Part shown: in pieces, positions 1 to 13,866 of the stretch | Layout of the letters: every line of letters starts with the position of its first letter | Numbering within the stretch: the first letter of the stretch is position 1 | DNA from: an uncultured Thermoleophilia bacterium | GTDB lineage: Bacteria > Actinomycetota > Thermoleophilia > UBA2241 | DNA length: 13,866 nucleotides | NCBI GenBank assembly: GCA_964519555.1 | Contig: CAZFJE010000074.1 | Span: forward strand, 1 to 13,866 | Direction of reading: 5' to 3' | Program-made: the position numbers and the translations under genes | Notes under the pieces: generated by a model | Databases searched by the model: none | Seen by the model: only the letters and a program-made list of their open reading frames with translations | Told to the model about the DNA's origin: nothing

Positions 1-395
1 CGGCGAGGGCCAGGGACCGTCACCCTCACCCGTCGGCCATAGTCCACCCGGACGGCGGAGACAGGGCGAAGGGGGAGTTATTGCCTCGCTGCGAATAGGG
101 ACGCCGCTCTTTGAGGCTCAAGCGCGAGCGGGACGAAGCCGACAACTAACAGTAATAAAACCAAATGCCCGAGGCGCAACATGCCATTTTGCAGGGAGTG
201 CGGAGACCACATAGCCGAGAGTGACCAATTCTGTGTCAAGTGCGGCGCGACAACGCCGTCGGGCGCATCCGGCGAGCTACAGGCTAACGATGGACGTTCG
301 CCTCGAAAGCGACGCCTAGTCACCATTATTGTTGTGGCCGTGGTACTTGCCGTAATTTTGTGTGCGCTCGTGTTCGGCCTCGGACGTTCACATCG
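1..395. repeat. Left arm of a long imperfect inverted repeat (partner 13344-13741)
   Basis: The reverse complement of 13344-13741 aligns to 1-395. Identity is 62/64 over 81-144 vs 13601-13664, including a 44/44 perfect run (101-144 vs 13601-13644). Similarity continues inward through the start codon, zinc ribbon and TM helix of the 181-945 gene. It also continues outward, with indels, to position 1, so the arm is truncated by the window. Confidence 0.85.
81..144 (+). promoter_or_regulatory. Conserved upstream block of the zinc-ribbon gene (candidate promoter/operator)
   Basis: The block lies -100 to -37 from ATG 181, and a near-identical copy sits upstream of GTG 13566. It contains a nested palindrome, ccgctc-t-ttgag-g-ctcaa-gcgc-gagcgg, at 104-131. 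gggacg (130-135) is followed after exactly 17 nt by taataa (153-158). The right copy has gggacg, 17 nt, then tactaa (13610-13615 / 13587-13592 on the minus strand). GAGG at 171-174 is a plausible SD. The promoter assignment is speculative. Confidence 0.4.
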
Positions 396-945
396 TGACG
401 GTGACGCCCTCGCAACTGTTGCCACGCCAACTGCGGCGGCCACACCAGCCCCGGCCACATCCCCGTCGGGAGCTGCCCAAGCCTCTACCAGACTCCCGGG
501 AATCGGTGGTTCAAGGACTTTCTATGACAGCGCCTACCCTGATTTTGGATTGACCGCGACCGTGGACAACACAAAGACCCTCCCGCCCGTAGAGAACGAC
601 AGTATTTGGTCCGATGTCCCCAAGTACGCGTATGGGGTGCAGCTGACAATTGAGAACACTGGACAACAGAGCTATGACGATGATCTTTCAGTTACGGCCA
701 ACAGTACCCTTGGAATCGCTGGCATCTTCACCCTCTACGACACAGATGGCAACTCCCACGGTTGGAACGACGGGGGCGATTACCCTGACGTTCTGCACCA
801 TGTGCACGTCTTGCCGGGGGAGTCGATTTCCGGTTGGGTCTATTTCGGATCAGATAACTCAATCACGCCAGTCTCTTTTGAGTTTGCTCCGAATGACATA
901 CAGGACAATGTGACCTTCAAGCCAGGTGAGTGGCAACTGCAATAG
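181..945 (+). CDS. Zinc-ribbon / single-pass membrane protein with a beta-sandwich ectodomain (tentatively DUF4352-like)
   Basis: ATG is preceded by GAGG. The N-terminus MPFCRECG...DQFCVKCG is a CxxC...CxxC zinc ribbon. A basic stretch RKRR is followed by the TM helix LVTIIVVAVVLAVILCALVFGLG and an Ala/Pro/Thr linker. The C-terminal part (YGVQLTIENTGQQ...LPGESISGWVYF) resembles DUF4352-type Ig-like domains. The domain call is from memory of the family pattern. Confidence 0.8.
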   Translation: MPFCRECGDHIAESDQFCVKCGATTPSGASGELQANDGRSPRKRRLVTIIVVAVVLAVILCALVFGLGRSHRDGDALATVATPTAAATPAPATSPSGAAQASTRLPGIGGSRTFYDSAYPDFGLTATVDNTKTLPPVENDSIWSDVPKYAYGVQLTIENTGQQSYDDDLSVTANSTLGIAGIFTLYDTDGNSHGWNDGGDYPDVLHHVHVLPGESISGWVYFGSDNSITPVSFEFAPNDIQDNVTFKPGEWQLQ

Positions 946-1052: not shown

Positions 1053-2006
1053 TCACGATGGAGGCGCGCCGAAGTCACCAACTCCGTGCCATCGGTCGCC
1101 GCCGATGTTGACATGACAGCCAGCTAGCTGAAGGCGCTGCGCAAGCTGCTGTCGCTTGGAAACGGAGTCGTCGAGACGGAGGATGTGCCGACCTGCGATG
1201 TCACTGAAGGGGCGAACCGTGCCGAGCTGAACAAGCACGGTTCTCTTAGCGTCTCTGCCCATGGCCATTCCAGCCTCAAAGATGACATTCATTCGTGCTT
1301 GAGGCGTGAAAGACTTCTCATGATCGGGGTCGGAGGATTGCTGAAAGTCAGGCAGCAGTCGCCCTTCATCGTCTGGGGTTATCAAGACCACTACCGCGGC
1401 GGCTTGGTCGAATGCTATGTCGAGAATCTCGCCGACATATGGCGTTGGATGACCCGTCCCGGCAACCGCCTCAGACCACTCAATCGGATGTAAGTCGATG
1501 GCGGACAGGAAGTCAATCAGCGAGCGTGCCGCAGCAAGGTCTCGCCCATGGACAACAAAGACGTCGCGCGCGTCGGACGGCTCGCGGCCATTCTCCCTTG
1601 CCATCTCTTCAGCGGTTGCCCTGTCCACGGAGACCTCGGTTCCATTGGATCGCACCTGTGAGGCCATTAGCTCTAAGTGACGAACGGCCGCCTCAAGGAT
1701 TCCTTTTATCTGGTTGCGGTATTCGTGAAACACATGCTGGAAGTCGTTCTTTGAATGCCAGTTGCTGCTGCTCAATACATGATCATCATAATTCATGACC
1801 CGAATGGCAAAGATATTGGTCACGTTAGTGAACTTCACGGTGAGCGGATGATTGTCACCAAAAAGCGAACGCAGTATAAGTTCTGCGTCAGTCTGCCATG
1901 CGGAGAACTGAGATGTCCAAATGTTTACTTCAAGACGTTCTAGCTCGTCCAGTGATGTCTTTATTCTTACTATGGCGTCTGAATGGCTGATTCTGTTGTT
2001 CAACAA
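1053..2006 (-). CDS. TIR-like (Cap12/PycTIR-type) domain protein with an unknown N-terminal domain; putative NADase defence effector
   Basis: The C-terminal half (aa ~148-305, nt 1092-1565) reads DVFVVHGRD...LIDFL...PIEW...VVVLITPDDEG...ARMNVIFEAGMAMG...RPFSDIAG. This matches the bacterial TIR-like nucleotide-binding family pattern (VFIVHG / LLTPDD / RQNVxFExG). The conserved Glu is retained (E244, nt 1275-1277). The start is TTG at 2006 or 2003, after GGAGA. The N-terminal ~145 aa have no recognisable motif and are AT-rich. Confidence 0.72.
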   Translation of the reverse strand: MLNNRISHSDAIVRIKTSLDELERLEVNIWTSQFSAWQTDAELILRSLFGDNHPLTVKFTNVTNIFAIRVMNYDDHVLSSSNWHSKNDFQHVFHEYRNQIKGILEAAVRHLELMASQVRSNGTEVSVDRATAEEMARENGREPSDARDVFVVHGRDLAAARSLIDFLSAIDLHPIEWSEAVAGTGHPTPYVGEILDIAFDQAAAVVVLITPDDEGRLLPDFQQSSDPDHEKSFTPQARMNVIFEAGMAMGRDAKRTVLVQLGTVRPFSDIAGRHILRLDDSVSKRQQLAQRLQLAGCHVNIGGDRWHGVGDFGAPPS

Positions 2007-2054: not shown

Positions 2055-2549
2055 TTAGGTGAGATCCAATGTTAGCGGCGTGCTCTCGTCGCTCTTGGTC
2101 TTTGGAGCCTTCTTGAAAGTCACATTTGTCTCCGACGACACCGGACTTTCGATCCGCGCCGAGCCGTCCAGTAACTTCGCGACTGTGAGAAGCTGAATGC
2201 GAGGATACGCGCTCTGCCCCTCCCATCCCGCGTGGTAGAAGCCCGCCGCCGCCGCGTCTTCGCGCATTGGCTTTGTAGGCTCCGGCATTGTGATGAGGAC
2301 ACCGATAGCGGCGCCCTCGCGTTCGATGACGCCGCGCAGCTCATGGACGTGGTGACGACCCGTGTGCCCGGCCTTCACGCTCAGAATGATTTGACTTGCC
2401 GCCTGTGCGCCGCCTTGCTCCGCAAACAGTACGTTGTATGTCGCGTTGGAGTTGAACGGCGGGTCGAGATAGACGAGGTCGACAGATTCGTCGGCTACAT
2501 AGCGCCGCAAGATGTCGAGATTGTCGCCGTAATAGAGCAGGTTGCCCAC
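2055..2549 (-). pseudogene. Internally deleted N4/N6 DNA methyltransferase remnant (motif IV region fused in frame to a C-terminal nuclease-like tail)
   Basis: NLLYYGDNLDILR...VDLVYLDPPFNSNATYNVLF is a typical MTase N-terminus with the DPPF motif. At about nt 2385-2390 it jumps directly to ...SVKAGH..VHELRGVIEREGAAIGVLITMPEPTKPMREDAAAAGFY...YPRIQLLTV. That sequence is the C-terminal REase-like tail seen in long MTases of this type. The AdoMet-binding FxGxG region is absent. The ORF stays open up to 2684, overlapping cas1, but GTG 2549 directly precedes the conserved N-terminus. Confidence 0.65.
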
Positions 2550-2601: not shown

Positions 2602-4155
2602 TCAAGGGGTTGCGGCCTCTGCGAGGCCTCGCAGCTTTTCCCAATGTCTCGGGTGCGGAATGTACCCCCGCCGAACCCTTGCACACATCGTCAGCGACAG
2701 CCCCGTCGCCGCCTTCATCTTGCGCAGCGACACACCCTCAAGCAGCGGCAGTATCTCGCGCCTGAATACAGCCGGGTCCGGCTTGTCGTGGGTTCGATCC
2801 CATTCGATTTCCTCGCGTCGCCGTTGTGCGGTGGCCTCACCGAGTTTGCGCCGCACTTCCGCGCTATCCATCGGTTCGCGACCCTCCGCGCGCATCTTGG
2901 CAAGCGCGGCAACCCCCGACGCCACGAATGCTATTTCCAGTTGTTGCCGTTCGCCGGGCAAGCAGTCGTCACAGAATTGGCGCTCGCTGTTCGGCAAAGG
3001 TCCGCCGCAAGTTGCGCAGGTCGCGGCCGGTCTGCGCGTCTGCGAGGATATCGGTCTCGTCGGCTTGCGGCGCACGGTGTCGCGCCCGCTGCTGCGGTTT
3101 GCCTGAGTTAGCGGCGTCGGTAGGCGTTCGATCCGCGATGGAGACTTCGAGGCGAGCATGCCCGCGACGTTCTCGACGACCGGCGCAATAGCGCGCGCCC
3201 ATTGAGTAGTCGTCTCCGCGAGGGTGTGCGTCAGGGGCGCAAGTACGCGGCAGACACCTTTTCTGGTCTCAACAAAGTCTTTAGCGGTAAAGGTGCGTGC
3301 CGCGAGCAAGTCGAGTAGATAGGCGTCGACCTGCGGGCGCACCGTTTCCATTAGGTCGAGCACTAATGAGTCGCGGGATTTCTGGTCCGCGTGAAATACT
3401 CCTAACCCCGGATCGAGCCCGCAGGCTAAACAGGCAAAGCGCGTCTCTGCCTCAAGCAATGCGTAGAGGTAATTGAGCATCGCATTTGCGGGATTAGCTG
3501 CGCGACGCGGCGACCCGGTAATCGGCGAGCCACGCTGCCCGAAATTACGCCAATGCTCAGGAGTTGATTTCTCGTCTTTCTTGGCAAAGCGCAGCGTGAT
3601 GTCTCGCCAGACTCCCCAATACGCCGCAGCGCCCGTCGATTCGGCCGTAAGCATTTCCGGCAAAGAAGCGGCATTATCGGCCATTATCCTCGCGGCGGTT
3701 AATTCGGCGGCAGCATTATCCGGGAATATCGACCGCGATAGATTAATTTCCTGACCGGCTAGCTTCGCGCAAAGCACATAGCGCGCTATTTTGAGGCCAG
3801 CGGTATTTGTCGGGGCGAGCGCCAGCGCGCGACGTAGGCGCGGATCGTTTAGCCCATAATTGGCGGAGGCCGCAATTACCTCGCCATCACGGTCGATCTG
3901 CAGAAATGCGATTCCGGCGTCGGTTAACCAGCGCAGCGCCTCGAGGCTAATTGCGCCCTCGTGGCCGACAATAATTAGCCGCTTTATGCCGACAAGTGCT
4001 TTCGCGAAGCTGCGCTCGCGACGAAAACGCCCGATGCCATCGGAGACAATCAGGCTGCGATTGCGAACCCGAACCTGGACGCCGTAGCCGTCGACCACGC
4101 AGACACCGCCCGCGCAGTCGAGGCTTTGGAAGGTTGCGCTAACATAGCTCTGCAT
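2602..4155 (-). CDS. cas1: Cas1-family integrase (stand-alone, casposase-like) with a C-terminal zinc ribbon + HTH extension
   Basis: Cas1 hallmarks are present: TAESTGAAAYW (E172), RRAANPANAMLNYLYALLEAE, and GLDPGLGVFHADQKSRDSLVLDLMETVRPQVD (H255, D267/E270). The N-terminal region (SLIVSDG...IKRLIIVGHEGAISLEALRWLTDAGIAFLQIDRDGEV) matches the Cas1 beta-domain pattern. The C-terminus has CATCGG...FCDDC (aa 380-398) and an HTH-like LRKMKAATGLSLTMCARVRRG (aa 477-497). An SD-like GAAAGGG precedes the ATG. Confidence 0.9.
   Translation of the reverse strand: MQSYVSATFQSLDCAGGVCVVDGYGVQVRVRNRSLIVSDGIGRFRRERSFAKALVGIKRLIIVGHEGAISLEALRWLTDAGIAFLQIDRDGEVIAASANYGLNDPRLRRALALAPTNTAGLKIARYVLCAKLAGQEINLSRSIFPDNAAAELTAARIMADNAASLPEMLTAESTGAAAYWGVWRDITLRFAKKDEKSTPEHWRNFGQRGSPITGSPRRAANPANAMLNYLYALLEAETRFACLACGLDPGLGVFHADQKSRDSLVLDLMETVRPQVDAYLLDLLAARTFTAKDFVETRKGVCRVLAPLTHTLAETTTQWARAIAPVVENVAGMLASKSPSRIERLPTPLTQANRSSGRDTVRRKPTRPISSQTRRPAATCATCGGPLPNSERQFCDDCLPGERQQLEIAFVASGVAALAKMRAEGREPMDSAEVRRKLGEATAQRRREEIEWDRTHDKPDPAVFRREILPLLEGVSLRKMKAATGLSLTMCARVRRGYIPHPRHWEKLRGLAEAATP
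2619..2634 (+). repeat. Perfect 16-bp palindrome ctgcgaggcctcgcag, followed on the plus strand by cttttcc (terminator-like in the plus orientation)
   Basis: Read directly from the sequence. It lies in the last ~10 codons of cas1. An overlapping alternative hairpin ggcctc-tgc-gaggcc sits at 2614-2628. A T-run follows only on the plus strand. Confidence 0.35.
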
Positions 4156-4173
4156 TTCGGAAACCCTTTCTTC

Positions 4174-4204
4174 CGAGTGCCACGCCCCCGGACCGCAGCC
4201 ACGG
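4174..4204 (-). terminator. GC-rich intergenic hairpin between the 387-aa gene and cas1 (attenuator, processing site or T-tract-less terminator)
   Basis: gcccccg-gaccg-cagcca-cggtc-g-cgggggc forms a 12-bp stem with one bulge and a 6-nt loop, 20 nt after the upstream stop codon. No U-tract follows on the minus-strand transcript. Confidence 0.35.
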
Positions 4205-4223
4205 TCGCGGGGGCACTTGTCTG

Positions 4224-5387
4224 CTAGGTCGAGTCTCCTGGTAGTCCGTCGGGGAAGAGCAGGGCCCTAGCCTCGGGATGAGTGACAAGAAAGCCACCGA
4301 CCCTCTCGGGGTCCTCCCGGGCGAACATCTGGACAGCGACCAGCAGACGCTTGAATTGATCCGCGTCGTGGAGGGTCGACTTCAGCCTGGCAGGCGTGAG
4401 CGTCTCGTCTTCGACGATCTCGGGGACTTCGGCCATGAGCTGCTCAAGGATGCCGATGAGCGGCGCGAGGTCAAGCACCGTACGGGTCCCCGGCACGGGC
4501 CGTGGTCCCCTGAAGGCTGGATCGTCGAAGAGCGGCTCCAAGACAAGCAACCAGCGCGCCTGGTCGACAGCATCGCTCGGCTGCAGTGCCGCGAAAAGAC
4601 TCTCGGCACTCTTGCCGCCCGCTTGCCGCGCCACGAAGCCGATTTGGCCGACTTCCACGAGCACCTGCTGGACGTGGTCGCGACAGCGGCAGAGGTCGTC
4701 ATCTGCGAGCGCCGCTAGGCGCTCCGAGTAGCAACCAGACAGCACACTTCGGGCAACCTCGCTGACTTCGACCACGTCGCCGCTGCCCAAGGCCTTTTGG
4801 CCAAGCAGCACACCGAAGAGAAACTGCAGGCCGAGCCCTTCGACGAGCCCAGAGGAAGTGCCGTCGCTCACGGGCGGTGCCAGCAGGGATGCCATGAAGC
4901 TCGGCAACCCACCCTTGCCGACCCGCCGTCTGGCTCGGGAGGCAAGCGCTTCGCTGGGTGCAAGCCGCACGTCCTCGCTATACCCGGCCTCGACGGCCGG
5001 CTGCAGCTCGTCCGGTGACTTTGTGCGAAGGGCATCGGCTCCACTGTCGACGCGCCGAGCCACCTCTTCGAGGAAGCCGCGAACGGTGGCCATCGGCACA
5101 TGGCAGCGCTCCCACCACAGATACCACGCAAGTAGGTCGTGACGGCGGGTGCGCTTCTCCTGGCGCAACTCGCAGATGCGCAGGAGGCGGTCAGCCGCTT
5201 CAGCTGGGTAGATGAACTTTCCGCTGCCGTGTTTCTTGCCTAGCCACTGACGATCGGGTGCCGGCAGCAACCCCTCGCGGTGCCACCTGGCGAACTGCAC
5301 GTCGCTCACGCGGTAGCCGCGCTTTGCAACGAGGCGAACCAGCTCCTGCTGCGTGTGACCGTCAGCCATGGACCGACTATACATCAT
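4224..5387 (-). CDS. Hypothetical protein with an N-terminal HTH-like region (element-specific, unknown function)
   Basis: A long ORF in the cas1 orientation, immediately upstream of cas1. The N-terminus TQQELVRLVAKRGYRVSDVQFARWHREGLLP looks like a wHTH/MerR-type helix-turn-helix. The rest is helical-looking with no motif I recognise. The start could be ATG 5387 or ATG 5369. Confidence 0.65.
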   Translation of the reverse strand: MMYSRSMADGHTQQELVRLVAKRGYRVSDVQFARWHREGLLPAPDRQWLGKKHGSGKFIYPAEAADRLLRICELRQEKRTRRHDLLAWYLWWERCHVPMATVRGFLEEVARRVDSGADALRTKSPDELQPAVEAGYSEDVRLAPSEALASRARRRVGKGGLPSFMASLLAPPVSDGTSSGLVEGLGLQFLFGVLLGQKALGSGDVVEVSEVARSVLSGCYSERLAALADDDLCRCRDHVQQVLVEVGQIGFVARQAGGKSAESLFAALQPSDAVDQARWLLVLEPLFDDPAFRGPRPVPGTRTVLDLAPLIGILEQLMAEVPEIVEDETLTPARLKSTLHDADQFKRLLVAVQMFAREDPERVGGFLVTHPEARALLFPDGLPGDST

Positions 5388-5480
5388 TACTTTAGACCGT
5401 GCATCTCAGCGTCGCTTTGGTGCCGCAAAATCGCCTCCTCTACGTTTAGCGCAAGCAGAAGACAAGCGTAGAGGTGACGT
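5388..5480. promoter_or_regulatory. Divergent control region between the leftward (387-aa gene, cas1...) and rightward (ParB-MTase...polB) gene strings
   Basis: This is the only sizeable intergenic gap between divergently oriented genes. It contains an AT-richer stretch ctatacatcattactttagacc. It also has an 8-bp inverted repeat, cctctacg (5437-5444) / cgtagagg (5467-5474), whose right half overlaps the GAGGTG Shine-Dalgarno of the 5481 ATG. Confidence 0.45.
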
Positions 5481-7085
5481 ATGGAAACCGACGAACGCAG
5501 ACCTCACCACGAGGCGCAATCGGGCGAGCAGGCTCCCCCCAGGCCGACCGGCCAGCCGGCCATGGTCGCCACGGGCAGCCTGCAGCCTCACCCGCTAAGC
5601 CTGGCCATCTACGGAGACGAAGCGGTCGACCTCGAGCTGGCTGCCAGCATCGCACAGCACGGCGTCCTCGAGCCACTCTCGGTCCTTGAGGACGGCACCA
5701 TCGTCTCTGGTCACCGCCGCTGGCGGGCAGCCCAGGCCGCCGGCCTTGCCAGTGTGCCGGCCACAGTCGTGAGCTTTGACGACCCCCTTGACGAGCACAC
5801 GGCCCTCATCGAACACAACCGCCAGCGCGTCAAGAGCTACAGCCAACGCATGCGTGAGGCCGACCAGCTCGAGACAATCGAGCGCGAGCGGGCCGAGCAG
5901 CGTCGGCGTCATCACGGCGGCACCGCCCCGGGGCGTTCGGCAGACACTGCCGGCAACATTGCCGGCAGTGAGGCCGGCGAGACCCGTGACAAGGTCGCCG
6001 CCGCAGTCGGCATGAAGGCGCGTAGCTTTGCCAAGGTGCGCAGCGTCTACAAGGCTGCCCAGCAGGGCAGCGAGGTCGCAGCCAAACAGCTGAGCGCCCT
6101 GGATGCCGGCGAGATCACGATCAACGCCGCCTACCAGGATGTGCGTCGCGAGGAGGCCGGACGCTGCACCACAGGCCTGGTCGATCCCGACGCAGCACCC
6201 CAAGCGCCGGAGCAGGTTACCAGCGAGCTCGGTGACCTCTGGATACTTGGCGAGCATCGACTTGCTTGCGGCGATGCCACCGACGCAGCGCTGGTGGACC
6301 GTCTGATGGCCGGCGAGCGGGCCGTGCTGATGGCCACCGACCCTCCCTATCTGGTCGACTACGACGGCGGCAACCACCCGCAGTCCTGGCGGCACAACGG
6401 CGAACACTCAGACCCGGAGACTCAGACCAAGCACTGGGATGCCTACGTCGACCAGCGTAGCGCCGAGGATTTCTACAGCGCCTACCTGGGCAGCGCCCTG
6501 GCCGAGGCACTCACTGAGCGTCCGACCATCTACCAGTTCTTCGCCATGATGCGCTTCGAGACCGTGCTGGCCGCTTGGCGGGCGAACGGCCTGCTTGCAC
6601 ACCAAGTTGTGATCTGGCACAAGAGCCGGATCGTGCTCGGTCGTAGCTGGTACATGTACGACTACGAGCCCTGCCTGGTCGGCTGGATCGCGGGCCGCCA
6701 GCCGGAGGCCGAGCGTCGTCCGCCGGCCAACGCCGCCGCCGTCTGGACCGTCGCCTCGACCGAGGGCAACGAGGCCACGATCTCGAGCCATCCCACGGTC
6801 AAGGCCGTCGAGCTCATTCGCCGGACGATTGCCTACCACACCCAGCCCGGCGAGCTGCTCTACGAACCCTTCGCCGGCTCGGGCACCGCCATAGTCGCCA
6901 GCGAGATGACCGGCCGGCGCTGCTATGCCGTCGAGCTTGCCCCGCTCTTTGTCGACCAGGCGGTGCTGCGCTGGCAGCGCTTCAGCGGCAAGCAGGCGAC
7001 CCTGCAGGAGAGTGGCCTCAGCTTCGCCGAGGTGGCCGCCCAGCGCGCCACAGGCGACCGTTCGGCATCTGCAGCGAGGCCCTGA
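5481..7085 (+). CDS. ParB-like nuclease domain fused to a beta-class N4/N6 DNA methyltransferase
   Basis: The N-terminus LQPHPLSLAIYGDE...HGVLEPLSVLEDGTIVSGHRRWRAAQAAGLASVPATVV is a ParB/Srx-type domain with the GHRR motif. The MTase part reads LGEHRLACGDATD...LMATDPPY (motif IV, aa 286-290), then HPTVKAVELIRR and EPFAGSGTA (motif I, aa 464-469). Motif IV before motif I is the beta-class order. GAGGTG SD precedes the start. Confidence 0.88.
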   Translation: METDERRPHHEAQSGEQAPPRPTGQPAMVATGSLQPHPLSLAIYGDEAVDLELAASIAQHGVLEPLSVLEDGTIVSGHRRWRAAQAAGLASVPATVVSFDDPLDEHTALIEHNRQRVKSYSQRMREADQLETIERERAEQRRRHHGGTAPGRSADTAGNIAGSEAGETRDKVAAAVGMKARSFAKVRSVYKAAQQGSEVAAKQLSALDAGEITINAAYQDVRREEAGRCTTGLVDPDAAPQAPEQVTSELGDLWILGEHRLACGDATDAALVDRLMAGERAVLMATDPPYLVDYDGGNHPQSWRHNGEHSDPETQTKHWDAYVDQRSAEDFYSAYLGSALAEALTERPTIYQFFAMMRFETVLAAWRANGLLAHQVVIWHKSRIVLGRSWYMYDYEPCLVGWIAGRQPEAERRPPANAAAVWTVASTEGNEATISSHPTVKAVELIRRTIAYHTQPGELLYEPFAGSGTAIVASEMTGRRCYAVELAPLFVDQAVLRWQRFSGKQATLQESGLSFAEVAAQRATGDRSASAARP

Positions 7086-7113
7086 GCCTCAGTACTTTTG
7101 GAGGGAGAAAGCC

Positions 7114-7728
7114 GTGTCAGAAAGGTACAAGAGCGGGCCGTATCGTCCGACCAGAGGTCGCTTCGCAGGTCGCGAGTTTGCCTCAAAGCGGCAGTATGAG
7201 AATGCACTCGCCCAACTGAAGGGCCACGCCACGCGCAGCCGGCTGGTGCGGACCAGTGGCAAGAAGGTCGGCCCCAAAAGCCATGGGAACCTGGCAACCT
7301 CGGAGCGACAGGCGCGCTCACGAGCCCTGGCTGTCACCTCACGTATGGCGCGGGAGCGTATCTCGCTGGCCAAGGCGGCTCGGCTTGAGGGCACCACGGT
7401 GGGCAACGTTCACAAGTGGGCCGAACCTGCCCTGGAACGTAAACCCAGCGGTCGCTACGCCGCCAAGCCCAATCGTCTCTACCGGCGGATGGTGGCGATC
7501 ACAACCGACGGCGTCGTCGAGGTCGGCGTGCGCAGCTCGGGTCAAGCCTCGCTTATCTCCGTCCACCACACGGCGGTGAAGCGCTTCCTGGCCACCGGCG
7601 ACGAGGCGGGCCTGAGGCGATTCCGTAACAAGACGGTCGACGGCAGGCGGCTTGAGACCGATCCCGCCGCCCTCGAGGAACTCGAGCGGGTCGGTCAGTT
7701 CGAGTACGAGTCGATCTACGAGGACTAA
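7114..7728 (+). CDS. Hypothetical protein with a central HTH-like segment
   Basis: GTG 7114 is preceded by a strong SD, GGAGGG (7100-7105), 28 nt after the MTase stop. It is in frame with the listed 6925-7728 ORF, whose upstream part overlaps the MTase gene. The segment ERISLAKAARLEGTTVGNVHKW looks like an HTH. I recognise no other motif. Confidence 0.62.
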   Translation: MSERYKSGPYRPTRGRFAGREFASKRQYENALAQLKGHATRSRLVRTSGKKVGPKSHGNLATSERQARSRALAVTSRMARERISLAKAARLEGTTVGNVHKWAEPALERKPSGRYAAKPNRLYRRMVAITTDGVVEVGVRSSGQASLISVHHTAVKRFLATGDEAGLRRFRNKTVDGRRLETDPAALEELERVGQFEYESIYED

Positions 7729-7739
7729 ACCGAGGAACC

Positions 7740-8204
7740 GTGGAGAAAGATCCCGCCAAGAACGACCGCCGCCGGTCGCGTCGTGCACGCAAGCTCGGCG
7801 AGGACGCTGCGTGCATTCTGTGCGGTTACCATCGTTGCCTCACAGGACTGAAGCAGGTGGACCGGCGCTTCCTTGAGGAGCACCACCTTCTTGGCTGGGT
7901 AACAGACGACACGCTCACCGCCTCTCTGTGCCGTAACTGCCACGCCGAGGTGACCGAGGATCAGCTCACTGACGGCTTCGACTTCAGGTCCGCAGAGCGG
8001 TCCGCCGAAGACGAGGCGAGGTACCTTCTGCTGGCAAGCGGGCGCTTCCTGTCGAGGCTCGGGCCGAGAATGACGGATGTCGCCTATCGGTTAGACTCCG
8101 GGACATGTCTGTCAGCGCCCGCGACATCCGCCCATGAGCCTCGAAAAGATCGCCCTGCGCGCCTACGGCGAACCAAGCGCCGGGGCGCGGCGCTCTACCA
8201 GTAG
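7740..8204 (+). CDS. HNH endonuclease
   Basis: CILCG...LEEHHLLG...LCRNCHAEV shows a CxxC...HH...N..CxxCH arrangement typical of the HNH/His-Me finger (nt ~7812-7964). The GTG start comes 11 nt after the preceding stop. The 3' end overlaps polB by 71 nt. Confidence 0.72.
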   Translation: MEKDPAKNDRRRSRRARKLGEDAACILCGYHRCLTGLKQVDRRFLEEHHLLGWVTDDTLTASLCRNCHAEVTEDQLTDGFDFRSAERSAEDEARYLLLASGRFLSRLGPRMTDVAYRLDSGTCLSAPATSAHEPRKDRPARLRRTKRRGAALYQ

Positions 8205-11200
8205 GTCGCGCAAGGGCTTCAAGCCGCGCCACGTTCTTATTTTCGACACGGAGACCACCATCGACGCCGCTCAGGCGCTGCTCTTCGGGTCGTATCGCTA
8301 CGTGCGTATCCGCTGGCAGGGCAATACGCCGACTCTCTCCACGGTCGAAGAGGGCCTGATCTACGCCGACGAGCTGCCCGATGAGAACGCCGAACGCTTT
8401 ACCGTCCTGCAGGACTACCGGGCAAGCCACCCGGCGGCGCTCGATCCCACCTACAGCCACGGCCTGCCGGTCGCGCTCAGGTTCTACTCCCGCCGCGAGT
8501 TTCTCACGGAGATGTTCTATCCGGCGGTCTACGAAAGCAGGGCTTTGGTCGCCGGCTTCAACCTGCCCTTCGATCTCTCTCGCCTGGCCGTCGACTGGTC
8601 GGCGGCACGCAAGGCATTCGCGGGTGGATTCTCGCTGGCCGTCTTTGAGTACGAAAAGGACGGCGTCTGGCGCGAGAACCGCTTCAAGCCCCGCATCGTC
8701 GTTAAGTCAATCGACAGCAAGCGTGCGCTCAAAGGCTTCGCCGGCACCTTCTCACCCGACGAGATCGACACGATCCCCGAGGGCGAGACCGAGCCCGCAG
8801 AGGGCTACATCTTTCGCGGCAACTTCCTCGACCTGCGCACGCTGGGCTTCGTGCTCACCGACAAGGGCCACACTCTGGAGTCGGCGTGTGAGGCCTTCGG
8901 CGTTGAACACGGTAAGACCAAGCCCAACAAGCACGGCGAGATCACACCCGAGTACATCGACTACAACCGCCGCGACGTGCTGGCCACAACCGAGCTGCTT
9001 GAAAAGACACTTGCCGAGTACTACCGCCACCCGGTCGACCTGCAGCCCACGCAGGCCTACTCGCCGGCTTCGCTCGGCAAGGCCTACCTGCGCGCCCTCG
9101 GTATCGCTCCGGTACTCAACCGCCAGTCTGACTTTCGTAAGGACGTGCTCGGCTATGCCATGCAGGCCTACTTTGGCGGGCGGGCCGACTGTCGCCTGCG
9201 TCGCCTGCCCGTGCCGGTCGCGTATACCGACTTCACGAGCATGTACCCGTCCGTCAATGCCCTTATGGACAACTGGCGGCTGCTCACCGCGAAGCGCATC
9301 GAGGTTCTCGACGCCACACGCGAGGTTCAGGAGCTGCTTGCCCGCGTAACTATCGACGACTGCTTTGCTCCCGAGCTGTGGCCGCAGCTGCGTGTGCTCG
9401 TCAAGGTGCGGCCTTCAGGTCAGCCCCTGTCTACCCGCGCCCGCTACGACCGTCGCCGCGTCCCCGCCTCCGCCAAGGCACGCAATAAGGAGCGCCAGGG
9501 CCAAGGCTGGCAGATCGGCATCAACTACCTGACAAGCGAGAAGCCGCTGTGGCTCGCCCTGCCCGACCTCATCGCCGCGAAGATCCTAGGCGGCAAGGTG
9601 CCCGAGGTGCTCGAGGCTTGGAACCTCGTGCCGGTCGGCAAACAGTCCAGCCTCTCGGCGGTCGAGCTGCGCGGCTCGATTGCGGTTGATCCAACCAAGA
9701 CCGACTTCTTTTGCACAGTCATCGAAGAGCGCCAGCGCGTGCGCGCGAAGGCCAAGGCCGACGGCCGTGAGAACGATCCGCTGGAGGGTTTCCTCAAGGT
9801 GCTCGCCAACTCGACAAGCTACGGCGTCTTTGCCGAGTTCGTGCGTCACGAGCTGACCGGCAAGCGCACCGAGTCGGTGCGTGTCTGGGACACCGAGGGC
9901 GAGAGTTTCGCCGCAAAGACGCACGCCCCCGAGCTGCCGGGCGAGTACTGCTTCCCGCCGCTTGCCGCCTTCATCACCTCGGCGGCGCGCCTCATGCTGG
10001 CCTTGCTCGAGGCCCGCGTCACAGAGCGCGGTGGTAGCTACGTCTTTTGCGACACCGATTCCATGGCGATTGTGGCAGACGAGGAGCCCCACCTCATCGA
10101 ATGCCCCGGCGGACCGCATCTGACCGACGAGGGCAAACCGGCCGTGCTCGCCTTAGGCTGGGATGAGGTCGACGAGATCCGCGAGCAGTTTAACCGGCTC
10201 AACCCCTACGACCGAAGCGCCGTGCCAGCCCTCGTTAAGATCGAAAGGGAGAACTTCGACGACAAGGGGCGGCGCGTGCCGCTGTTCTGCTACGCGATCA
10301 GCGCCAAGCGCTATGTGCTCTTCTACAAAGACAAACGGGGAGAGCTGTCAATGCCCAAGGCCTCCGAGCACGGCCTCGGCCACCTGCTCAACCCTTACGA
10401 CCCCGACGAGGGCAACCGCATCGAAGACGGCGCTGCAGCCGATGGCAAGAGCAAGCCCAACTGGATCAAGGAAGCCTGGCACGACATCCTCGCCAAGGAA
10501 GTGACCTTGCGGGCCGCCAAGTCGCCTTCGTGGTGGCACGAGCCGGCCCTTGTTCGCATCACGATCTCAAGCCCTGCGGTGCTCGAGCCCTTCGGGGGCA
10601 TGAACACGGTCAAGCCCACCTACCGCGAGCGCGTGAAGCCCTTCAACTTCATGCTCTCGGCGCGGATCGAGGATTTCGGCTATCCGCTCGAGGTGACCGA
10701 CCCTCACCACTTCCATCTGGTCACGCGCTACACGCGCAAGCCGCGCGAGGCGCTCAAGGTCACCTGGTTCAACCGCTACGACGGCAAGCCGTACCGCGTG
10801 ACCATCGGAAGTTCGTCCGACCTTGCCGGCCAGGCCCGCATCCTCACCTACGGCGAGATGCTTGAGGACTACCGCTACCGGCCGGAGTACAAAAGCACTG
10901 CGCCGGACGGACAGACTTGCGGCCGGGAGACATCCGGTCTGCTAGGTAGGCGGTCGATTGAGGCTCTCAAGTTCATCTATGTCGGTAAGGAGTCAAACCG
11001 CCTCGAGGAAGCGCAGCAAGGCCTGCTGCACGATGAGGAAGAGGCGCTCAGCGAGTTCGACGATCCGCGCCACAGCGACTTTTGCGAGTTCGTGCTGCCG
11101 GTGCTTGCCACGATGCCGCTGTCGGTGTTGGCCACAGCGACCGGGCTACATCCGAGCACACTCAAGAGGATTCGAGCCGGGACGGCGCAGCCGCGTACTA

Positions 11201-11436
11201 ACAACGAAGACGCCCTCTGGGTGGTCGCCATCGAACACGCGCGGGCGGAGCTTACGAGGCGCGGTTTTCAGCTGCCTGAGACGCACCTTGCGGCGTTGCG
11301 CGTCTACATCGAAGCGATGTCAGCCCAGCCGCGGCAGTGCCCAGTCTGCGGGGAGCCGATGGTCAGCAGGCGTCAAAGGTATTGCAGCAACAGATGCCGC
11401 CAGCGAGCGGTACGTGCTCGGTCTCGAGCGAACTGA
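8134..11436 (+). CDS. polB: Family B DNA polymerase with 3'-5' exonuclease domain and a ~350-aa C-terminal extension ending in HTH + zinc ribbon
   Basis: Exonuclease motifs: ExoI IFDTETT (D38/E40, nt 8245), ExoII GFNLPFDLSRL, ExoIII YIDYNRRD. Polymerase motifs: motif A YTDFTSMYPS (D366, nt 9229), motif B KVLANSTSYG (K555, nt 9796), motif C YVFCDTDS (D640/D642, nt 10051), and KxY AKRY (K725). The C-terminus has LSVLATATGLHPSTLKRIRAG and CPVCGEP...RYCSNRCRQRA. Confidence 0.92.
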   Translation: MSLEKIALRAYGEPSAGARRSTSRSRKGFKPRHVLIFDTETTIDAAQALLFGSYRYVRIRWQGNTPTLSTVEEGLIYADELPDENAERFTVLQDYRASHPAALDPTYSHGLPVALRFYSRREFLTEMFYPAVYESRALVAGFNLPFDLSRLAVDWSAARKAFAGGFSLAVFEYEKDGVWRENRFKPRIVVKSIDSKRALKGFAGTFSPDEIDTIPEGETEPAEGYIFRGNFLDLRTLGFVLTDKGHTLESACEAFGVEHGKTKPNKHGEITPEYIDYNRRDVLATTELLEKTLAEYYRHPVDLQPTQAYSPASLGKAYLRALGIAPVLNRQSDFRKDVLGYAMQAYFGGRADCRLRRLPVPVAYTDFTSMYPSVNALMDNWRLLTAKRIEVLDATREVQELLARVTIDDCFAPELWPQLRVLVKVRPSGQPLSTRARYDRRRVPASAKARNKERQGQGWQIGINYLTSEKPLWLALPDLIAAKILGGKVPEVLEAWNLVPVGKQSSLSAVELRGSIAVDPTKTDFFCTVIEERQRVRAKAKADGRENDPLEGFLKVLANSTSYGVFAEFVRHELTGKRTESVRVWDTEGESFAAKTHAPELPGEYCFPPLAAFITSAARLMLALLEARVTERGGSYVFCDTDSMAIVADEEPHLIECPGGPHLTDEGKPAVLALGWDEVDEIREQFNRLNPYDRSAVPALVKIERENFDDKGRRVPLFCYAISAKRYVLFYKDKRGELSMPKASEHGLGHLLNPYDPDEGNRIEDGAAADGKSKPNWIKEAWHDILAKEVTLRAAKSPSWWHEPALVRITISSPAVLEPFGGMNTVKPTYRERVKPFNFMLSARIEDFGYPLEVTDPHHFHLVTRYTRKPREALKVTWFNRYDGKPYRVTIGSSSDLAGQARILTYGEMLEDYRYRPEYKSTAPDGQTCGRETSGLLGRRSIEALKFIYVGKESNRLEEAQQGLLHDEEEALSEFDDPRHSDFCEFVLPVLATMPLSVLATATGLHPSTLKRIRAGTAQPRTNNEDALWVVAIEHARAELTRRGFQLPETHLAALRVYIEAMSAQPRQCPVCGEPMVSRRQRYCSNRCRQRAVRARSRAN

Positions 11437-11698
11437 CTTTCCGATGCCTTGGGGGGCGCAGCGCAATCTCACCCTTCACGTCTCTGCCATCGCCACCGCA
11501 GAGGTCGTCGGTGACGCCCGCATGGGTAAGGCGTCTGATCTGGCGACCTGCCGTCCCGATTACCTCACGCGCAGGTACCATATCGATCTGGTTCCAGTCG
11601 AAGTCACTGATCGGTCGACTGTCGAAGGTGCAGTTGGTGAAATCCACAGTGTCGAAGCTAGCCAAGGTCTGCGGTGCGCGGTGCAGGGTGAAGGCCAA
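11363..11698 (-). pseudogene. Possible pentapeptide-repeat protein fragment (low confidence)
   Basis: A TTG-initiated ORF. Residues F15, F20, F25, I30, W35 and M40 (LASFD TVDFT NCTFD SRPIS DFDWN QIDM; nt 11579-11656) show strict 5-residue hydrophobic periodicity, as in pentapeptide repeats. The ORF tail runs 74 nt antisense into the polB 3' end, which is unusual for a genuine gene. Confidence 0.25.
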
Positions 11699-11740
11699 TC
11701 GACGCGCTACGAAGACGCGGCTCGCGTGGCAGCGACAAAG

Positions 11741-12295
11741 CTAGACGTTGGCCAGGATTTCGGCTCGCTTTGTTTCGTACTCGTCCGCGCTAAGAAGTCC
11801 TTGACTCCGCAGCGATGCGAGGTCGCGAAGGCGCCGCGCAACGAGCGGCTCCCCCTCGTTCCTCACGGTCGCCACGACGGGGCGATGGGTTGGTGAGCGA
11901 ACCGTGCGCACAACAGCAGGAATTGCTAGTGCAATAAATAAGCCGAACAATATTATTGTCACTAATTCTAAGAATAATGCTGTCCCATGATCTAGATACG
12001 AACTTCTCCCACCTTCAAGAACAGAAGTCACAGACGGTACTGTCGCAAGCGACCTTATGTAAAAAAATAATGTCAGACAAATTACAGCGAGTATAGATAG
12101 GGTGACGGCCAAGACAGACGATATCGTGGATTTCACGAGACCCGTCATGTCCAGCTTGCGCGGTCTATTTGCCCGACTCGTTTGCAGACTCGGAGGGCGC
12201 ACGACCGGCGCGCTCGGTACGAGCGCCGTTCCGCACTTGCGACAGAACAAGTCCCCCGTAATGGGTGGACTGCTACACTGCGGACAGAGAGCCAT
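11741..12295 (-). CDS. Zinc-ribbon membrane protein with a C-terminal SHOCT domain
   Basis: ATG 12295 is preceded by GAGGA. MALCPQCS...LFCRKCG is a zinc ribbon. There are two hydrophobic helices (ISSVLAVTLSILAVICLTLFFYI and ALFLELVTIILFGLFIALAIPAVV). The C-terminus LRDLASLRSQGLLSADEYETKRAEIL matches the SHOCT pattern. The ORF stays open to 12346, but the paralogues start directly at the zinc ribbon. Confidence 0.8.
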   Translation of the reverse strand: MALCPQCSSPPITGDLFCRKCGTALVPSAPVVRPPSLQTSRANRPRKLDMTGLVKSTISSVLAVTLSILAVICLTLFFYIRSLATVPSVTSVLEGGRSSYLDHGTALFLELVTIILFGLFIALAIPAVVRTVRSPTHRPVVATVRNEGEPLVARRLRDLASLRSQGLLSADEYETKRAEILANV

Positions 12296-12423
12296 GATTG
12301 TCCTCGCGGTTGGTCGTATCTGTCTCGTTCTCGACTCCGACGGCAAAGAGCCCCATTCGTTGATATGAGTTTCCTTGGTGGTTGTCGCGCTGGCTAAGCA
12401 ACGTCGGGTCGGCGCGTTCTTTC

Positions 12424-13566
12424 CTAGGGTCGAGTGGCGGGAATGGTGACGCCGCTATCTCCCACCGCCCACCCGTGGTTGACATCCGCGAAGGCCACTG
12501 CCTCGGGTTCGTTTGTGCCTGTACTTTGGAGGGTCCAATGGGTGCCACGGTCGCTACTTGAAAGGATGACGCCGCCGGTGGTGTTGTCAGCGCCCACGGC
12601 CCATCCATGCGAGCTATCGGCGAAAGAGACACTGTAAAGCTGGGCAGTCGTACCTGAGCTCTGCACATTCCAGGTAGCGCCGCCGTCGGTGGTGCCAAAT
12701 ATGGTTCCGTTGTCGCCCACTGCCCAGCCGTGCGAAGCATCAGCGAAAGAGACACCACGGAGCGTGCTTGCGGTACCCAAGTCTTTCGCGTCCGGGCCGA
12801 AGCCATGCTGCACGTTCCAGGTAGCGCCGCCGTCGGCGGTGGCAAGTATGGTGCCGTTGTCGCCCACCGCCCAGCCGTGCGAAGCGTCGGAGCAGGTGAC
12901 GGCGTTAAGGCCCGGAGTCGTGCCCGGGTCCTGGGCGCCCCAAGTGGCGCCGCCGTCGGTGGTTCCCAAGATGACGCTCGAGCGTGTCGAGGGGTCCACG
13001 CCCACCGCCCAACCGTGAGACGGATCGGCAAAGGAAATACCGCTGAGGAAACTCGTCGTGCCCGGGTCCTGGGCGCTCCAAGTTACACCACCGTCGGTGG
13101 TTACCAAGATGACGCTCGCACCCGTCGTCGAAGTGTCATCGCCCACCGCCCAGCCGTGCGAGCGATCGACGAACCAGACACCAAAAAGCTGAGCTGTCGT
13201 ACCCGAATTTTGCGCCCCCCAGGTAGTGCCGCCGTCGGTGGTGGCAAGGATTGTGCCACCGTCACCCACTGCCCAGCCGTGAGAAGCATCGCCGAAGCAG
13301 ACACCATGAAGCGTTTGGGTAGTCGGGTGGGCAACGCGATAATGATGCGAATGTCCCATGCCAAACACGAGCGCACACGCGATGGCAGCAAGTACGACGA
13401 CAACGACACCAATGAGGATGGCGCGGTGTCGTCTTCGGGTGGGGCGGGCTTCGCTGGCCTGAGGCTCGCCGGGCACAGCGGACGGTGTTGCAATCGCGGC
13501 GCCACATTTAGCGCAGAATTGGTCGCTTTCCACCGTGAGGTTGCCACACTGTCTGCAAAATGGCAC
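12424..13566 (-). CDS. Zinc-ribbon / single-pass membrane protein with a seven-bladed beta-propeller ectodomain (BNR/Ycf48-like repeats)
   Basis: GTG 13566 (VPFCRQCG...DQFCAKCG) aligns codon-for-codon with ATG 181 of the left paralogue. The TM helix is AILIGVVVVVLAAIACALVFGMG. Seven repeats of D.SHGWAVG....I..TTDGG.TW..Q follow. The listed ORF extension up to 13806 is Arg/Gly-rich and lies in the conserved non-coding block. Confidence 0.85.
   Translation of the reverse strand: MPFCRQCGNLTVESDQFCAKCGAAIATPSAVPGEPQASEARPTRRRHRAILIGVVVVVLAAIACALVFGMGHSHHYRVAHPTTQTLHGVCFGDASHGWAVGDGGTILATTDGGTTWGAQNSGTTAQLFGVWFVDRSHGWAVGDDTSTTGASVILVTTDGGVTWSAQDPGTTSFLSGISFADPSHGWAVGVDPSTRSSVILGTTDGGATWGAQDPGTTPGLNAVTCSDASHGWAVGDNGTILATADGGATWNVQHGFGPDAKDLGTASTLRGVSFADASHGWAVGDNGTIFGTTDGGATWNVQSSGTTAQLYSVSFADSSHGWAVGADNTTGGVILSSSDRGTHWTLQSTGTNEPEAVAFADVNHGWAVGDSGVTIPATRP
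12427..13314 (-). repeat. Intragenic tandem repeats (7 propeller blades, about 40-49 codons each)
   Basis: The SHGWAVG / NHGWAVG motif occurs seven times. The blade copies starting at 12670 and 12817 (147 nt apart) share 64/69 nt over the first 69 nt in my hand alignment. Confidence 0.8.
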
Positions 13567-13741
13567 GCAACGCCTCCGACGCAGGGTTAGTACAACATAC
13601 TGTCGGCTTCGTCCCGCTCGCGCTTGAGCCTCAAAGAGCGGCGTTCCTCTTCGCAGCGAGGCAAGAAACACCCCTTCGGCGCGTCTCCGCCGCCCACGGT
13701 GACGGTGGGGGGTGACGTTGTCCCGACGGCCGGACGCCGAG
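13344..13741. repeat. Right arm of the long imperfect inverted repeat (partner 1-395)
   Basis: See the left arm. The inner limit is where ...tgtgcgctcgtgtttggcatgggacattcgcatc stops matching 361-394. The outer limit is set only by the left window edge, so the true arm may be longer. Confidence 0.85.
13601..13664 (-). promoter_or_regulatory. Right copy of the conserved upstream block (candidate promoter/operator)
   Basis: 62/64 identical to the reverse complement of 81-144. 13601-13644 is a perfect 44-nt match. The block lies -35 to -98 from GTG 13566. The same nested palindrome maps to 13614-13641. Confidence 0.4.
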
Positions 13742-13866
13742 CCCCCGATCCGTCGGCACCCGTTGCACCCGCTCCATCCTGTCTGTGCCTGAGCCCCCGA
13801 ACCCAACCCCCGCAGCCCCGCCCGTACGCGGGCTCCCGGCCCTCGTGCGACGACCGTAGGGCAAGG

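Follow-up and report, generated by a model that had tools for sequence, protein, structure and literature searches.

A metagenome contig that very probably holds the interior of a bacterial family-3 casposon, and the spread of its relatives

Casposons are rare transposons that copy themselves and insert by means of a Cas1 enzyme; they are thought to be ancestral to the machinery that integrates spacers into clustered regularly interspaced short palindromic repeat (CRISPR) arrays, and the elements of their family 3 are known from a handful of bacterial genomes. In reviews, casposons are described as uncommon and mostly archaeal (PMC6452270). Here we present a stretch of DNA of 13,866 nucleotides (the window), which makes up nearly all of the 14,098-bp metagenome contig JGI 3300041809 Ga0455670_0040352; the contig holds 189 nt more on the left and 43 nt more on the right. 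The window encodes a Cas1 protein and a family B DNA polymerase (PolB) and is, in all probability, the interior of a bacterial family-3 casposon whose ends lie outside it. In what follows, the window clade denotes this locus together with the relatives that we recovered from other bacterial genomes.

The closest of the reference Cas1 proteins is that of AceAut-C1, which has been reported with a C-terminal zinc-binding domain and a helix-turn-helix (HTH). PolB and methyltransferase-type cargo, and probably HNH, are common to AceAut-C1 and the window, and the target-site duplication (TSD) of AceAut-C1 measures 15 bp versus 14 bp in the window clade. AceAut-C1 differs in residing in another host phylum and in its dimensions (20 kb, with terminal inverted repeats of 602 bp). 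Four more elements with bacterial hosts belong to the same Cas1 clade, namely StrAlb-C1 (Streptomyces albulus), the S. spinosa element, HenMar-C1 and NitAL212-C1, but their Cas1 similarity is lower (30-41%), and Cas1 in both StrAlb-C1 and HenMar-C1 is without extra C-terminal domains, unlike the window Cas1. The TSD of NitAL212-C1 measures 14 bp, and there is a loose resemblance between the terminus of this element, GGGGTATG...CCCAAACGCC, and the GGGATAGG...AAACTGCC of the window clade. One Streptomyces genome (L057) carries both a PolB of the window clade and the canonical terminus of that clade. The TSDs published for other family-3 casposons are 17, 1 and 14 bp long, none with the TTGAC sequence discussed below.

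The family-2 casposons of the archaea Aciduliprofundum boonei and Methanosarcina mazei have what is probably the same core set of Cas1, PolB, HNH and HTH genes, HTH extensions on Cas1 as well as on PolB, and TSDs of about 14-15 bp; tandem insertions at one target have been reported for them. The likeness extends to the fold of the M. mazei casposase (6opm) and to the A. boonei polymerase, a member of the PolB_CDTDS group with the same motif C as that of the window. The family-2 elements differ in their archaeal hosts and in their Cas1 proteins, which are 27-30% identical to that of the window. They differ in target too: the recognition site of the A. boonei casposase is a tRNA-Pro gene, at its 3' end (PMC9939771), as against promoter -35 boxes in the window clade.

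Casposase, polymerase and the core gene set

Eleven genes are tightly packed in the window, with few spare bases between them and a G+C content of about 62%. The core machinery would consist of the casposase gene and, divergent from it, a three-gene operon for a 204-aa HTH-like protein, an HNH-like nuclease and PolB. The genes of this central part are:

2602 to 4155, minus strand: casposase Cas1, 517 aa, with the Cas1 domain at aa 19-315, a zinc ribbon and a C-terminal HTH-like helical domain
4224 to 5387, minus strand: fast-evolving 387-aa protein (about 381-387 aa in relatives), encoded between the casposase gene and the operon divergent from it
7114 to 7728, plus strand: 204-aa conserved core protein, with an HTH-like segment at about aa 83-117
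7740 to 8204, plus strand: divergent HNH-like zinc-finger nuclease, overlapping the polB start by 71 nt
8134 to 11436, plus strand: family B DNA polymerase, 1100 aa, with a CDTDS-type motif C and a C-terminal HTH-like segment and zinc ribbon

An initial annotation, made from the sequence alone, had read the Cas1, PolB and HNH open reading frames (ORFs) as parts of a casposon-like element or a derivative of one, with Cas1 as its integrase. All three ORFs are present, and the reading holds up: Cas1 falls among the casposases with its catalytic residues intact, and the relatives are bounded by terminal inverted repeats and 14-bp TSDs.

The Cas1 ORF matches the Pfam Cas_Cas1 (1.2e-37) and NCBIfam cas1 (4.5e-31) models. 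The four residues previously proposed to be catalytic, E172, H255, D267 and E270, had been numbered correctly; each of them is invariant among 109 full-length homologues and coincides with a catalytic column when Cas1 and casposase references are aligned. When the protein was compared by BLASTP with 19 reference sequences from the Krupovic 2014 alignment (PMC4046053, supplement 3), the top five matches all belonged to family 3: AceAut-C1 (45.6% identity, 224 bits), S. spinosa (215 bits), StrAlb-C1 (169 bits), HenMar-C1 (145 bits) and NitAL212-C1 (135 bits). Scores were 77-105 bits for family 2, 73 bits for family 1 and at most 50 bits for CRISPR Cas1 proteins. A neighbour-joining tree with 100 bootstraps was built from the window Cas1, 12 relatives and trimmed references; the window protein and its relatives joined AceAut-C1 (96% bootstrap), and the resulting group was nested with S. 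spinosa and StrAlb-C1 (94%) and then with NitAL212-C1 (100%). A structure model (pLDDT 85) found its best PDB match in the M. mazei casposase 6opm (Foldseek, E 1.6e-18, TM 0.77), which ranked above every CRISPR Cas1. The C-terminal extension, 200 residues long, contains four invariant cysteines (C380, C383, C395 and C398) and a conserved helical segment resembling an HTH, which agrees with the C-terminal layout described for the Cas1 of AceAut-C1. By sequence, Cas1 is classed as a family-3 casposase of the AceAut-C1 type and not as a CRISPR Cas1.

The initial annotation had allowed that Cas1 might nest inside CRISPR clades. The locus would then be the remnant of a CRISPR-Cas adaptation module, with cas2 and the array outside the window and the polymerase gene an unrelated neighbour. 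Generic Cas1 models do score well, as given above, and the best PDB match by sequence is the CRISPR Cas1 from A. fulgidus. However, the tree and the reference scores place the window Cas1 among the casposases, far from CRISPR Cas1. Moreover, Cas1 is linked to PolB in about 70 of 80 genome loci, and the two are syntenic with the 204-aa protein in nearly all 80. Domain searches detected no Cas2 and no tyrosine, serine or DDE recombinase domain in any substantial window ORF, and no tRNA, Rfam match, tandem array, repeat-spacer array or CRISPR-like periodic repeat was found in the window; the earlier statement that cas2, an array and these recombinases are missing is thus borne out. A CRISPR array lay within reach in a single locus (L026) out of 93 fetched relatives, about 5.8 kb from the casposase gene. 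That array (137-517, with the 32-nt repeat GTTTCAATTCACGCGCCCGCGTAGGGCGCGAC) is separated from the casposase gene by a terminus-type motif at position 2674, and it is probably the host's own. We consider an adaptation-module remnant improbable in the extreme.

CRISPR-like periodic repeats near relatives were also followed up as candidates; three of the four matches proved to be coding tandem repeats, the fourth being the L026 array.

With the Cas1-Cas2 adaptation integrase, the window clade shares the Cas1 fold and the catalytic tetrad and, presumably, the chemistry of integration. It differs in being without cas2 and an array, in occupying a separate branch, and in integrating a whole element of 11-18 kb, not a spacer. 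Pipolins (piPolB elements, which combine a primer-independent PolB with a tyrosine recombinase) differ in turn from the window, whose ORFs encode no tyrosine recombinase domain and whose relatives have terminal inverted repeats and 14-bp TSDs as their borders and encode no candidate integrase other than Cas1.

All the exonuclease and polymerase motifs attributed to PolB in the initial annotation were recovered (Exo I, II and III, and Pol motifs A, B, C and KxY). In an alignment of 26 sequences, with members as low as 46% identical to the window protein, the key residues are invariant: D38/E40, N143/D147, Y277/D281, D366..SMYP, K555..YG, D640-T-D642 and K725-R-Y727. PolB matches Pfam DNA_pol_B_2 (3.4e-8), and its AlphaFold model (pLDDT 84, pTM 0.83) has family B polymerases as its top PDB matches throughout, with phi29, archaeal 9°N/Tgo, Pol alpha and Pol epsilon all scoring about 1e-10 in Foldseek. 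Motif C reads FCDTDS. The PolB_CDTDS group is a divergent cluster named after its motif and related to the main and the protein-primed groups, and the polymerase of the A. boonei casposon sits in it (Kazlauskas et al. 2020, PMC7544198). Judging by this motif, the window PolB would belong with the casposon-containing PolB_CDTDS group. The polymerases of family-1 casposons are of the protein-primed type. Its equal structural likeness to phi29-type and archaeal-type enzymes fits the intermediate position of that group. At the C-terminus, the HTH-like segment and zinc ribbon echo the HTH that is common to Cas1 and PolB of family 2.

The HNH ORF, which had also been noted at polB, carries an invariant CxxC...HH...CxNCH pattern that is kept in relatives; its database matches are weak (McrA HNH domain, E=0.0024; ZorE, E=0.0027). 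The 204-aa protein is encoded upstream of HNH/PolB at the majority of the 80 related loci; its HTH matches are marginal (E 0.02-0.03), and a PDB profile search gave no match. Four homologues of the 387-aa protein were obtained in a word-indexed search. Its positional homologues are 17-24% identical, at loci some of which encode a PolB 71-87% identical to that of the window, and proteins of this type are present only in an actinobacterial subclade; no Pfam, PHROG or PADLOC match was found for it.

By analogy with characterised casposases, Cas1 would act as integrase on the ends of the element, joining its 3' ends to the target with a stagger of 14 bp, and repair of the gaps left by the staggered joining would produce the 14-bp duplication. 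The presumed task of the polymerase is to copy the element. Presumably the zinc-ribbon and HTH extensions of Cas1 and PolB, together with the small HTH-like protein, recognise the ends and the target.

It had been suspected that the accessory genes and the PolB architecture might not fit the described families. The comparisons speak otherwise, with a Cas1 of the AceAut-C1 type, a PolB of the CDTDS type, and an HNH gene, a small conserved protein and methyltransferase cargo that have all been reported for families 2 and 3. The element adds to family 3 and is neither a new architecture nor a new kind of element.

Spread, mobility and target site of the relatives

One more family-3 member would by itself be a modest result, and the comparative results weigh more. 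Cas1 and PolB each have thousands of homologues, nearly all of the PolB homologues being annotated as hypothetical. In a scan of one genome per species, PolB was encoded in the genomes of at least 455 bacterial species. Among the matches listed, the PolB-bearing hosts include Acidobacteriota, Actinomycetes, Eremiobacterota, Gemmatimonadota and Chloroflexota, the isolates are of Tunturiibacter, Tsukamurella and Streptomyces, and the closest genome-resolved relatives are metagenome-assembled genomes of Actinomycetes with Cas1 proteins 67-68% identical to that of the window. Going by these relatives, the host of the window element would be a high-GC bacterium, probably one of the actinomycetes. 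The gene order is conserved as well: in almost every locus with sufficient flank, the Cas1 gene lies divergent and 2-4 kb upstream, and the 204-aa protein precedes HNH/PolB.

The relatives share a conserved terminus, GGGATAGGRGATAGG, and terminal inverted repeats of 30-390 bp. In 29 loci the terminus GGGATAGGRGAYAG flanks the core on both sides, delimiting elements of 10.9-18.1 kb, among them a complete 12.7-kb copy in Tunturiibacter psychrotolerans X4BP1 (L036); the consensus of 48 termini reads GGGATAGGaGATAGg...AAActgCCC. A 14-bp TSD borders 25 of the 29 two-ended elements and is perfect in all but one of these (24/25). An element of 11,587 bp is shared by two loci, L005 and L006 (99.92% identity), where it is oppositely oriented and has different outer flanks. 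The two copies encode identical Cas1 proteins, 69% identical to the window Cas1, and have terminal inverted repeats of 338 bp and perfect 14-bp TSDs, CAGCTCGTCTTGAC and GTCAAGACGAGGCC, beside a tRNA-Ile promoter. The presence of a near-identical element at two sites demonstrates recent transposition. Elements of this clade have thus moved, which is an observation on the relatives and not on the window copy.

The TSD ends in TTGAC in 17 of the 25 cases (L005, L006, L013, L015, L017, L018, L036, L042, L044, L047, L048, L052, L059, L070, L087, L088 and L089), and in these a TANNNT hexamer follows in the host flank after a spacer of about promoter length. Together, these features point to the 3' edge of a -35-like box as the insertion site, so that the downstream copy of the TSD would keep the promoter whole after insertion. 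Insertions were found in either orientation. Targeting of tRNA genes was considered and set aside: some of the target promoters drive tRNA genes, but for most insertions no tRNA is close by, and the TTGAC box is the feature that they have in common.

Remnants of termini adjoin intact elements in L005, L006 and L007, which shows that one target was used repeatedly. Genes for BNR propellers lie directly inside degenerate terminus remnants beside the intact elements of L007 (14845-16344) and L005 (3163-4048), and in L007 the 14-bp target sequence GTCAACCGCGGGGC is repeated. The L007 and L005 remnants indicate tandem or serial insertions at a single site.

Similarity to the window is discordant between the two main proteins in L007, whose Cas1 is 77% identical and whose PolB is 48% identical at the protein level. 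The PolB of L092 is 87% identical to that of the window, and the two gene regions of L093 show about 74-75% identity as DNA. The discordance between Cas1 and PolB suggests that modules may be exchanged between casposons.

Tentatively, the window may be assigned to a large, active and uncharacterised clade of bacterial casposons, spread over hundreds of soil species in at least five phyla and distinguished by the near-invariant terminus GGGATAGGRGATAGG, a strict 14-bp TSD and insertion at a -35 box of the sigma-70 type (TTGAC); we put this forward as a possibility that falls somewhat short of even chances. In the open-access literature we found no report of the breadth of the clade in soil bacteria, of its conserved terminus, of recent movement or of the -35-box target; subscription journals could differ. 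These family-level features may be new. If the assignment to a large clade is true, casposons would no longer be seen as mainly archaeal and rare, and cultured hosts (Tunturiibacter, Streptomyces, Tsukamurella) are at hand for a first study of casposon transposition in vivo. If the features are indeed unreported, they would provide testable DNA substrates, along with cultured hosts, for work on target choice by a Cas1 integrase.

The ends of the window copy

The features that bear on the ends of the element are:

1 to 417, starting 189 nt left of the window: left arm of an inverted repeat, its inner part about 74% identical to the other arm
181 to 945, plus strand: zinc-ribbon/transmembrane/DUF4352-like protein, an end-proximal, inward-reading cargo gene or a flanking host gene
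12424 to 13566, minus strand: zinc-ribbon/transmembrane/BNR (Ycf48-like) beta-propeller protein, whose gene reads from the contig end inward
13321 to 13866, continuing 43 nt to the contig end: right arm of the inverted repeat, contig-terminal

The two ends of the contig form an inverted repeat in which the outermost 98 nt are perfect and a further 500 nt are about 74% identical. The left copy of the perfect 98 nt lies wholly outside the window. The diverged inner part covers the 5' untranslated regions (UTRs) and the zinc-ribbon/transmembrane N-termini of both end genes.

Several observations weigh against taking the window for the interior of a family-3 casposon. Where the initial annotation had merely called the ends not obvious, the terminus scans go further: neither the window nor the rest of the 14.1-kb contig contains the termini. 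A search with the terminus consensus, allowing 3 mismatches, found no canonical terminus there, and with a position matrix derived from 48 termini the best score in the contig was -4.1, below shuffled controls, real termini scoring 15.7-48.2. For the window copy itself, then, neither terminal inverted repeats nor a TSD have been established. Homology of the contig ends to the subterminal parts of the terminal inverted repeats of relatives was also examined; the best match covered 14 nt (E=0.07), and since the reverse-strand control scored better, it was rejected as evidence. The inverted repeat at the contig ends is made of paralogous gene starts, possibly those of host genes flanking a decayed element, and the BNR genes of L005, L007 and L013 are situated outside the intact element. 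Two further points concern the core itself: the Cas1 tree was a neighbour-joining tree on trimmed reference sequences, not a maximum-likelihood tree, and the assignment of the HNH gene has the motif and the weak matches as its sole basis.

One alternative is a decayed or domesticated casposon derivative, its core fixed between paralogous host genes for membrane proteins, its termini lost and the whole immobile. The lack of any terminus motif in the contig, the gene starts that make up the flanking inverted repeat, the BNR genes outside intact elements of relatives and the one cargo gene that is a degraded remnant would all be expected of such a derivative. On the other side, all the catalytic and polymerase motifs are intact. 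In the nearest relatives (L007, L008 and L093) the canonical termini are found 2-3.3 kb from the core, distances comparable to the 2.5 and 2.8 kb that separate the core from the ends of the window contig. Variable cargo begins directly after polB, as in the complete elements of relatives; at the position of the SHOCT gene, the closest relative, L092, has a different, unrelated gene. The BNR genes of L005 and L007 read inward from just inside terminus remnants. Finally, the abrupt switch from perfect to diverged sequence, at a length of 98 nt that is near common assembler k-mer sizes, is the pattern of a collapsed repeat in an assembly graph. Other assemblies also break at related terminal inverted repeats, that of L039 having a 77-nt perfect terminal repeat and that of L093 starting 2 nt before the terminus.

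The contig-terminal repeat probably represents collapsed terminal inverted repeats, with the left arm being the inner part of a long one, and the contig would have broken inside perfect terminal inverted repeats. The terminus distances of the relatives, the variable cargo after polB, the position of the BNR gene and the collapsed-repeat pattern make it reasonably likely that the contig stops just short of the true ends of the window copy. A decayed derivative is unlikely by comparison with the casposon interior that we favour.

A third explanation takes the contig ends for genome ends. The contig would in that case be an entire extrachromosomal element, linear and either plasmid-like or virus-like, with inverted terminal repeats; the repeat does reach the last base at both contig ends, and the contig encodes a family B polymerase of its own. 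Against this, protein searches of the window detected no capsid, terminal-protein or packaging gene, and all the resolved relatives are integrated in chromosomes with TSDs. The exact length of 98 nt fits a k-mer overlap, and the sequence at the contig ends is without the family terminus. We regard a linear element as highly improbable and retain the interior of an integrated casposon as the preferred reading.

Exact-pattern scans of metagenomes with the terminal repeat and with the leader core of the end genes (see below) yielded no extension beyond the contig, though they missed the source contig too. A scan of viral contigs gave no extending sequence, and exact-protein look-ups of both end genes returned no match, also when the BNR gene was retried with M first.

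Cargo genes and small repeats

The remaining features of the window are:

970 to 1031: 62-nt hairpin repeat between convergent genes, 97% identical in related loci
1053 to 2006, minus strand: CAP12/Pycsar-type TIR-domain protein, cargo (Pfam PF10137, 1.1e-27; PADLOC PDC-S35, a candidate single-gene defence system, 4.7e-29)
2055 to 2549, minus strand: methyltransferase/Mrr-like remnant, cargo, 164 aa, with a DPPFN motif-I fragment and a fragment of an Mrr/NA-iREase1-like nuclease
5481 to 7085, plus strand: ParB_N and N6/N4 DNA methyltransferase fusion, cargo, assigned by domain matches
11741 to 12346, minus strand: zinc-ribbon/transmembrane/SHOCT protein, encoded in the variable stretch that follows polB

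The ParB-methyltransferase, the TIR-domain protein, the restriction-modification remnant and the three zinc-ribbon membrane proteins would be cargo or flank. The ParB-methyltransferase is a common gene of mobile elements, and the ORF at 2055-2549 is likely a decayed restriction-modification gene. These accessory genes are within the range reported for casposon cargo.

Public gene calls for the contig differ from ours at two places: they include a 150-aa ORF at 11444-11896 (+) and miss the SHOCT gene at 11741-12346 (-), and they include a 72-aa antisense ORF at 7725-7943 (-) and miss the HNH-like gene at 7740-8204 (+). We preferred the SHOCT and HNH-like genes on account of their domain matches and their conservation in relatives.

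The products of the genes at 181-945, 11741-12346 and 12424-13566 share an N-terminus made of a cytoplasmic zinc ribbon and a single transmembrane helix, and they diverge at the C-terminus into DUF4352-like, SHOCT and BNR/Ycf48-like propeller parts. The 5' UTR and N-terminus of the 181-945 gene are paralogous to those of the 12424-13566 gene. A 66-nt core, near-perfect, lies in the 5' UTRs of both end genes (79-144 and 13601-13666), and its conservation exceeds that of the coding sequences (about 85% over 108 nt, compared with 71-73%). Folding of this leader core as RNA was no better than that of shuffled controls.

In some acidobacterial members of the clade, a gene downstream of the casposase gene contains tandem coding repeats of 96 nt, or 32 codons (L070, 5679-6062; L065, 5779-6258).

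The 62-nt hairpin at 970-1031, GCGGCCGGGTGGCTACGCTGGCGGGACGCCGATATTAGACAGTTGCCCGGCCGC, recurs with 97% identity at 16083-16144 of L006. Partial copies occur at the inner edge of the terminal inverted repeat of L005 and L006 and in L010 and L011. The neighbouring genes, by comparison, are about 70% identical. As RNA, the hairpin folds marginally better than shuffled sequences (z = -1.9). It could represent either a conserved terminator or a small mobile repeat.

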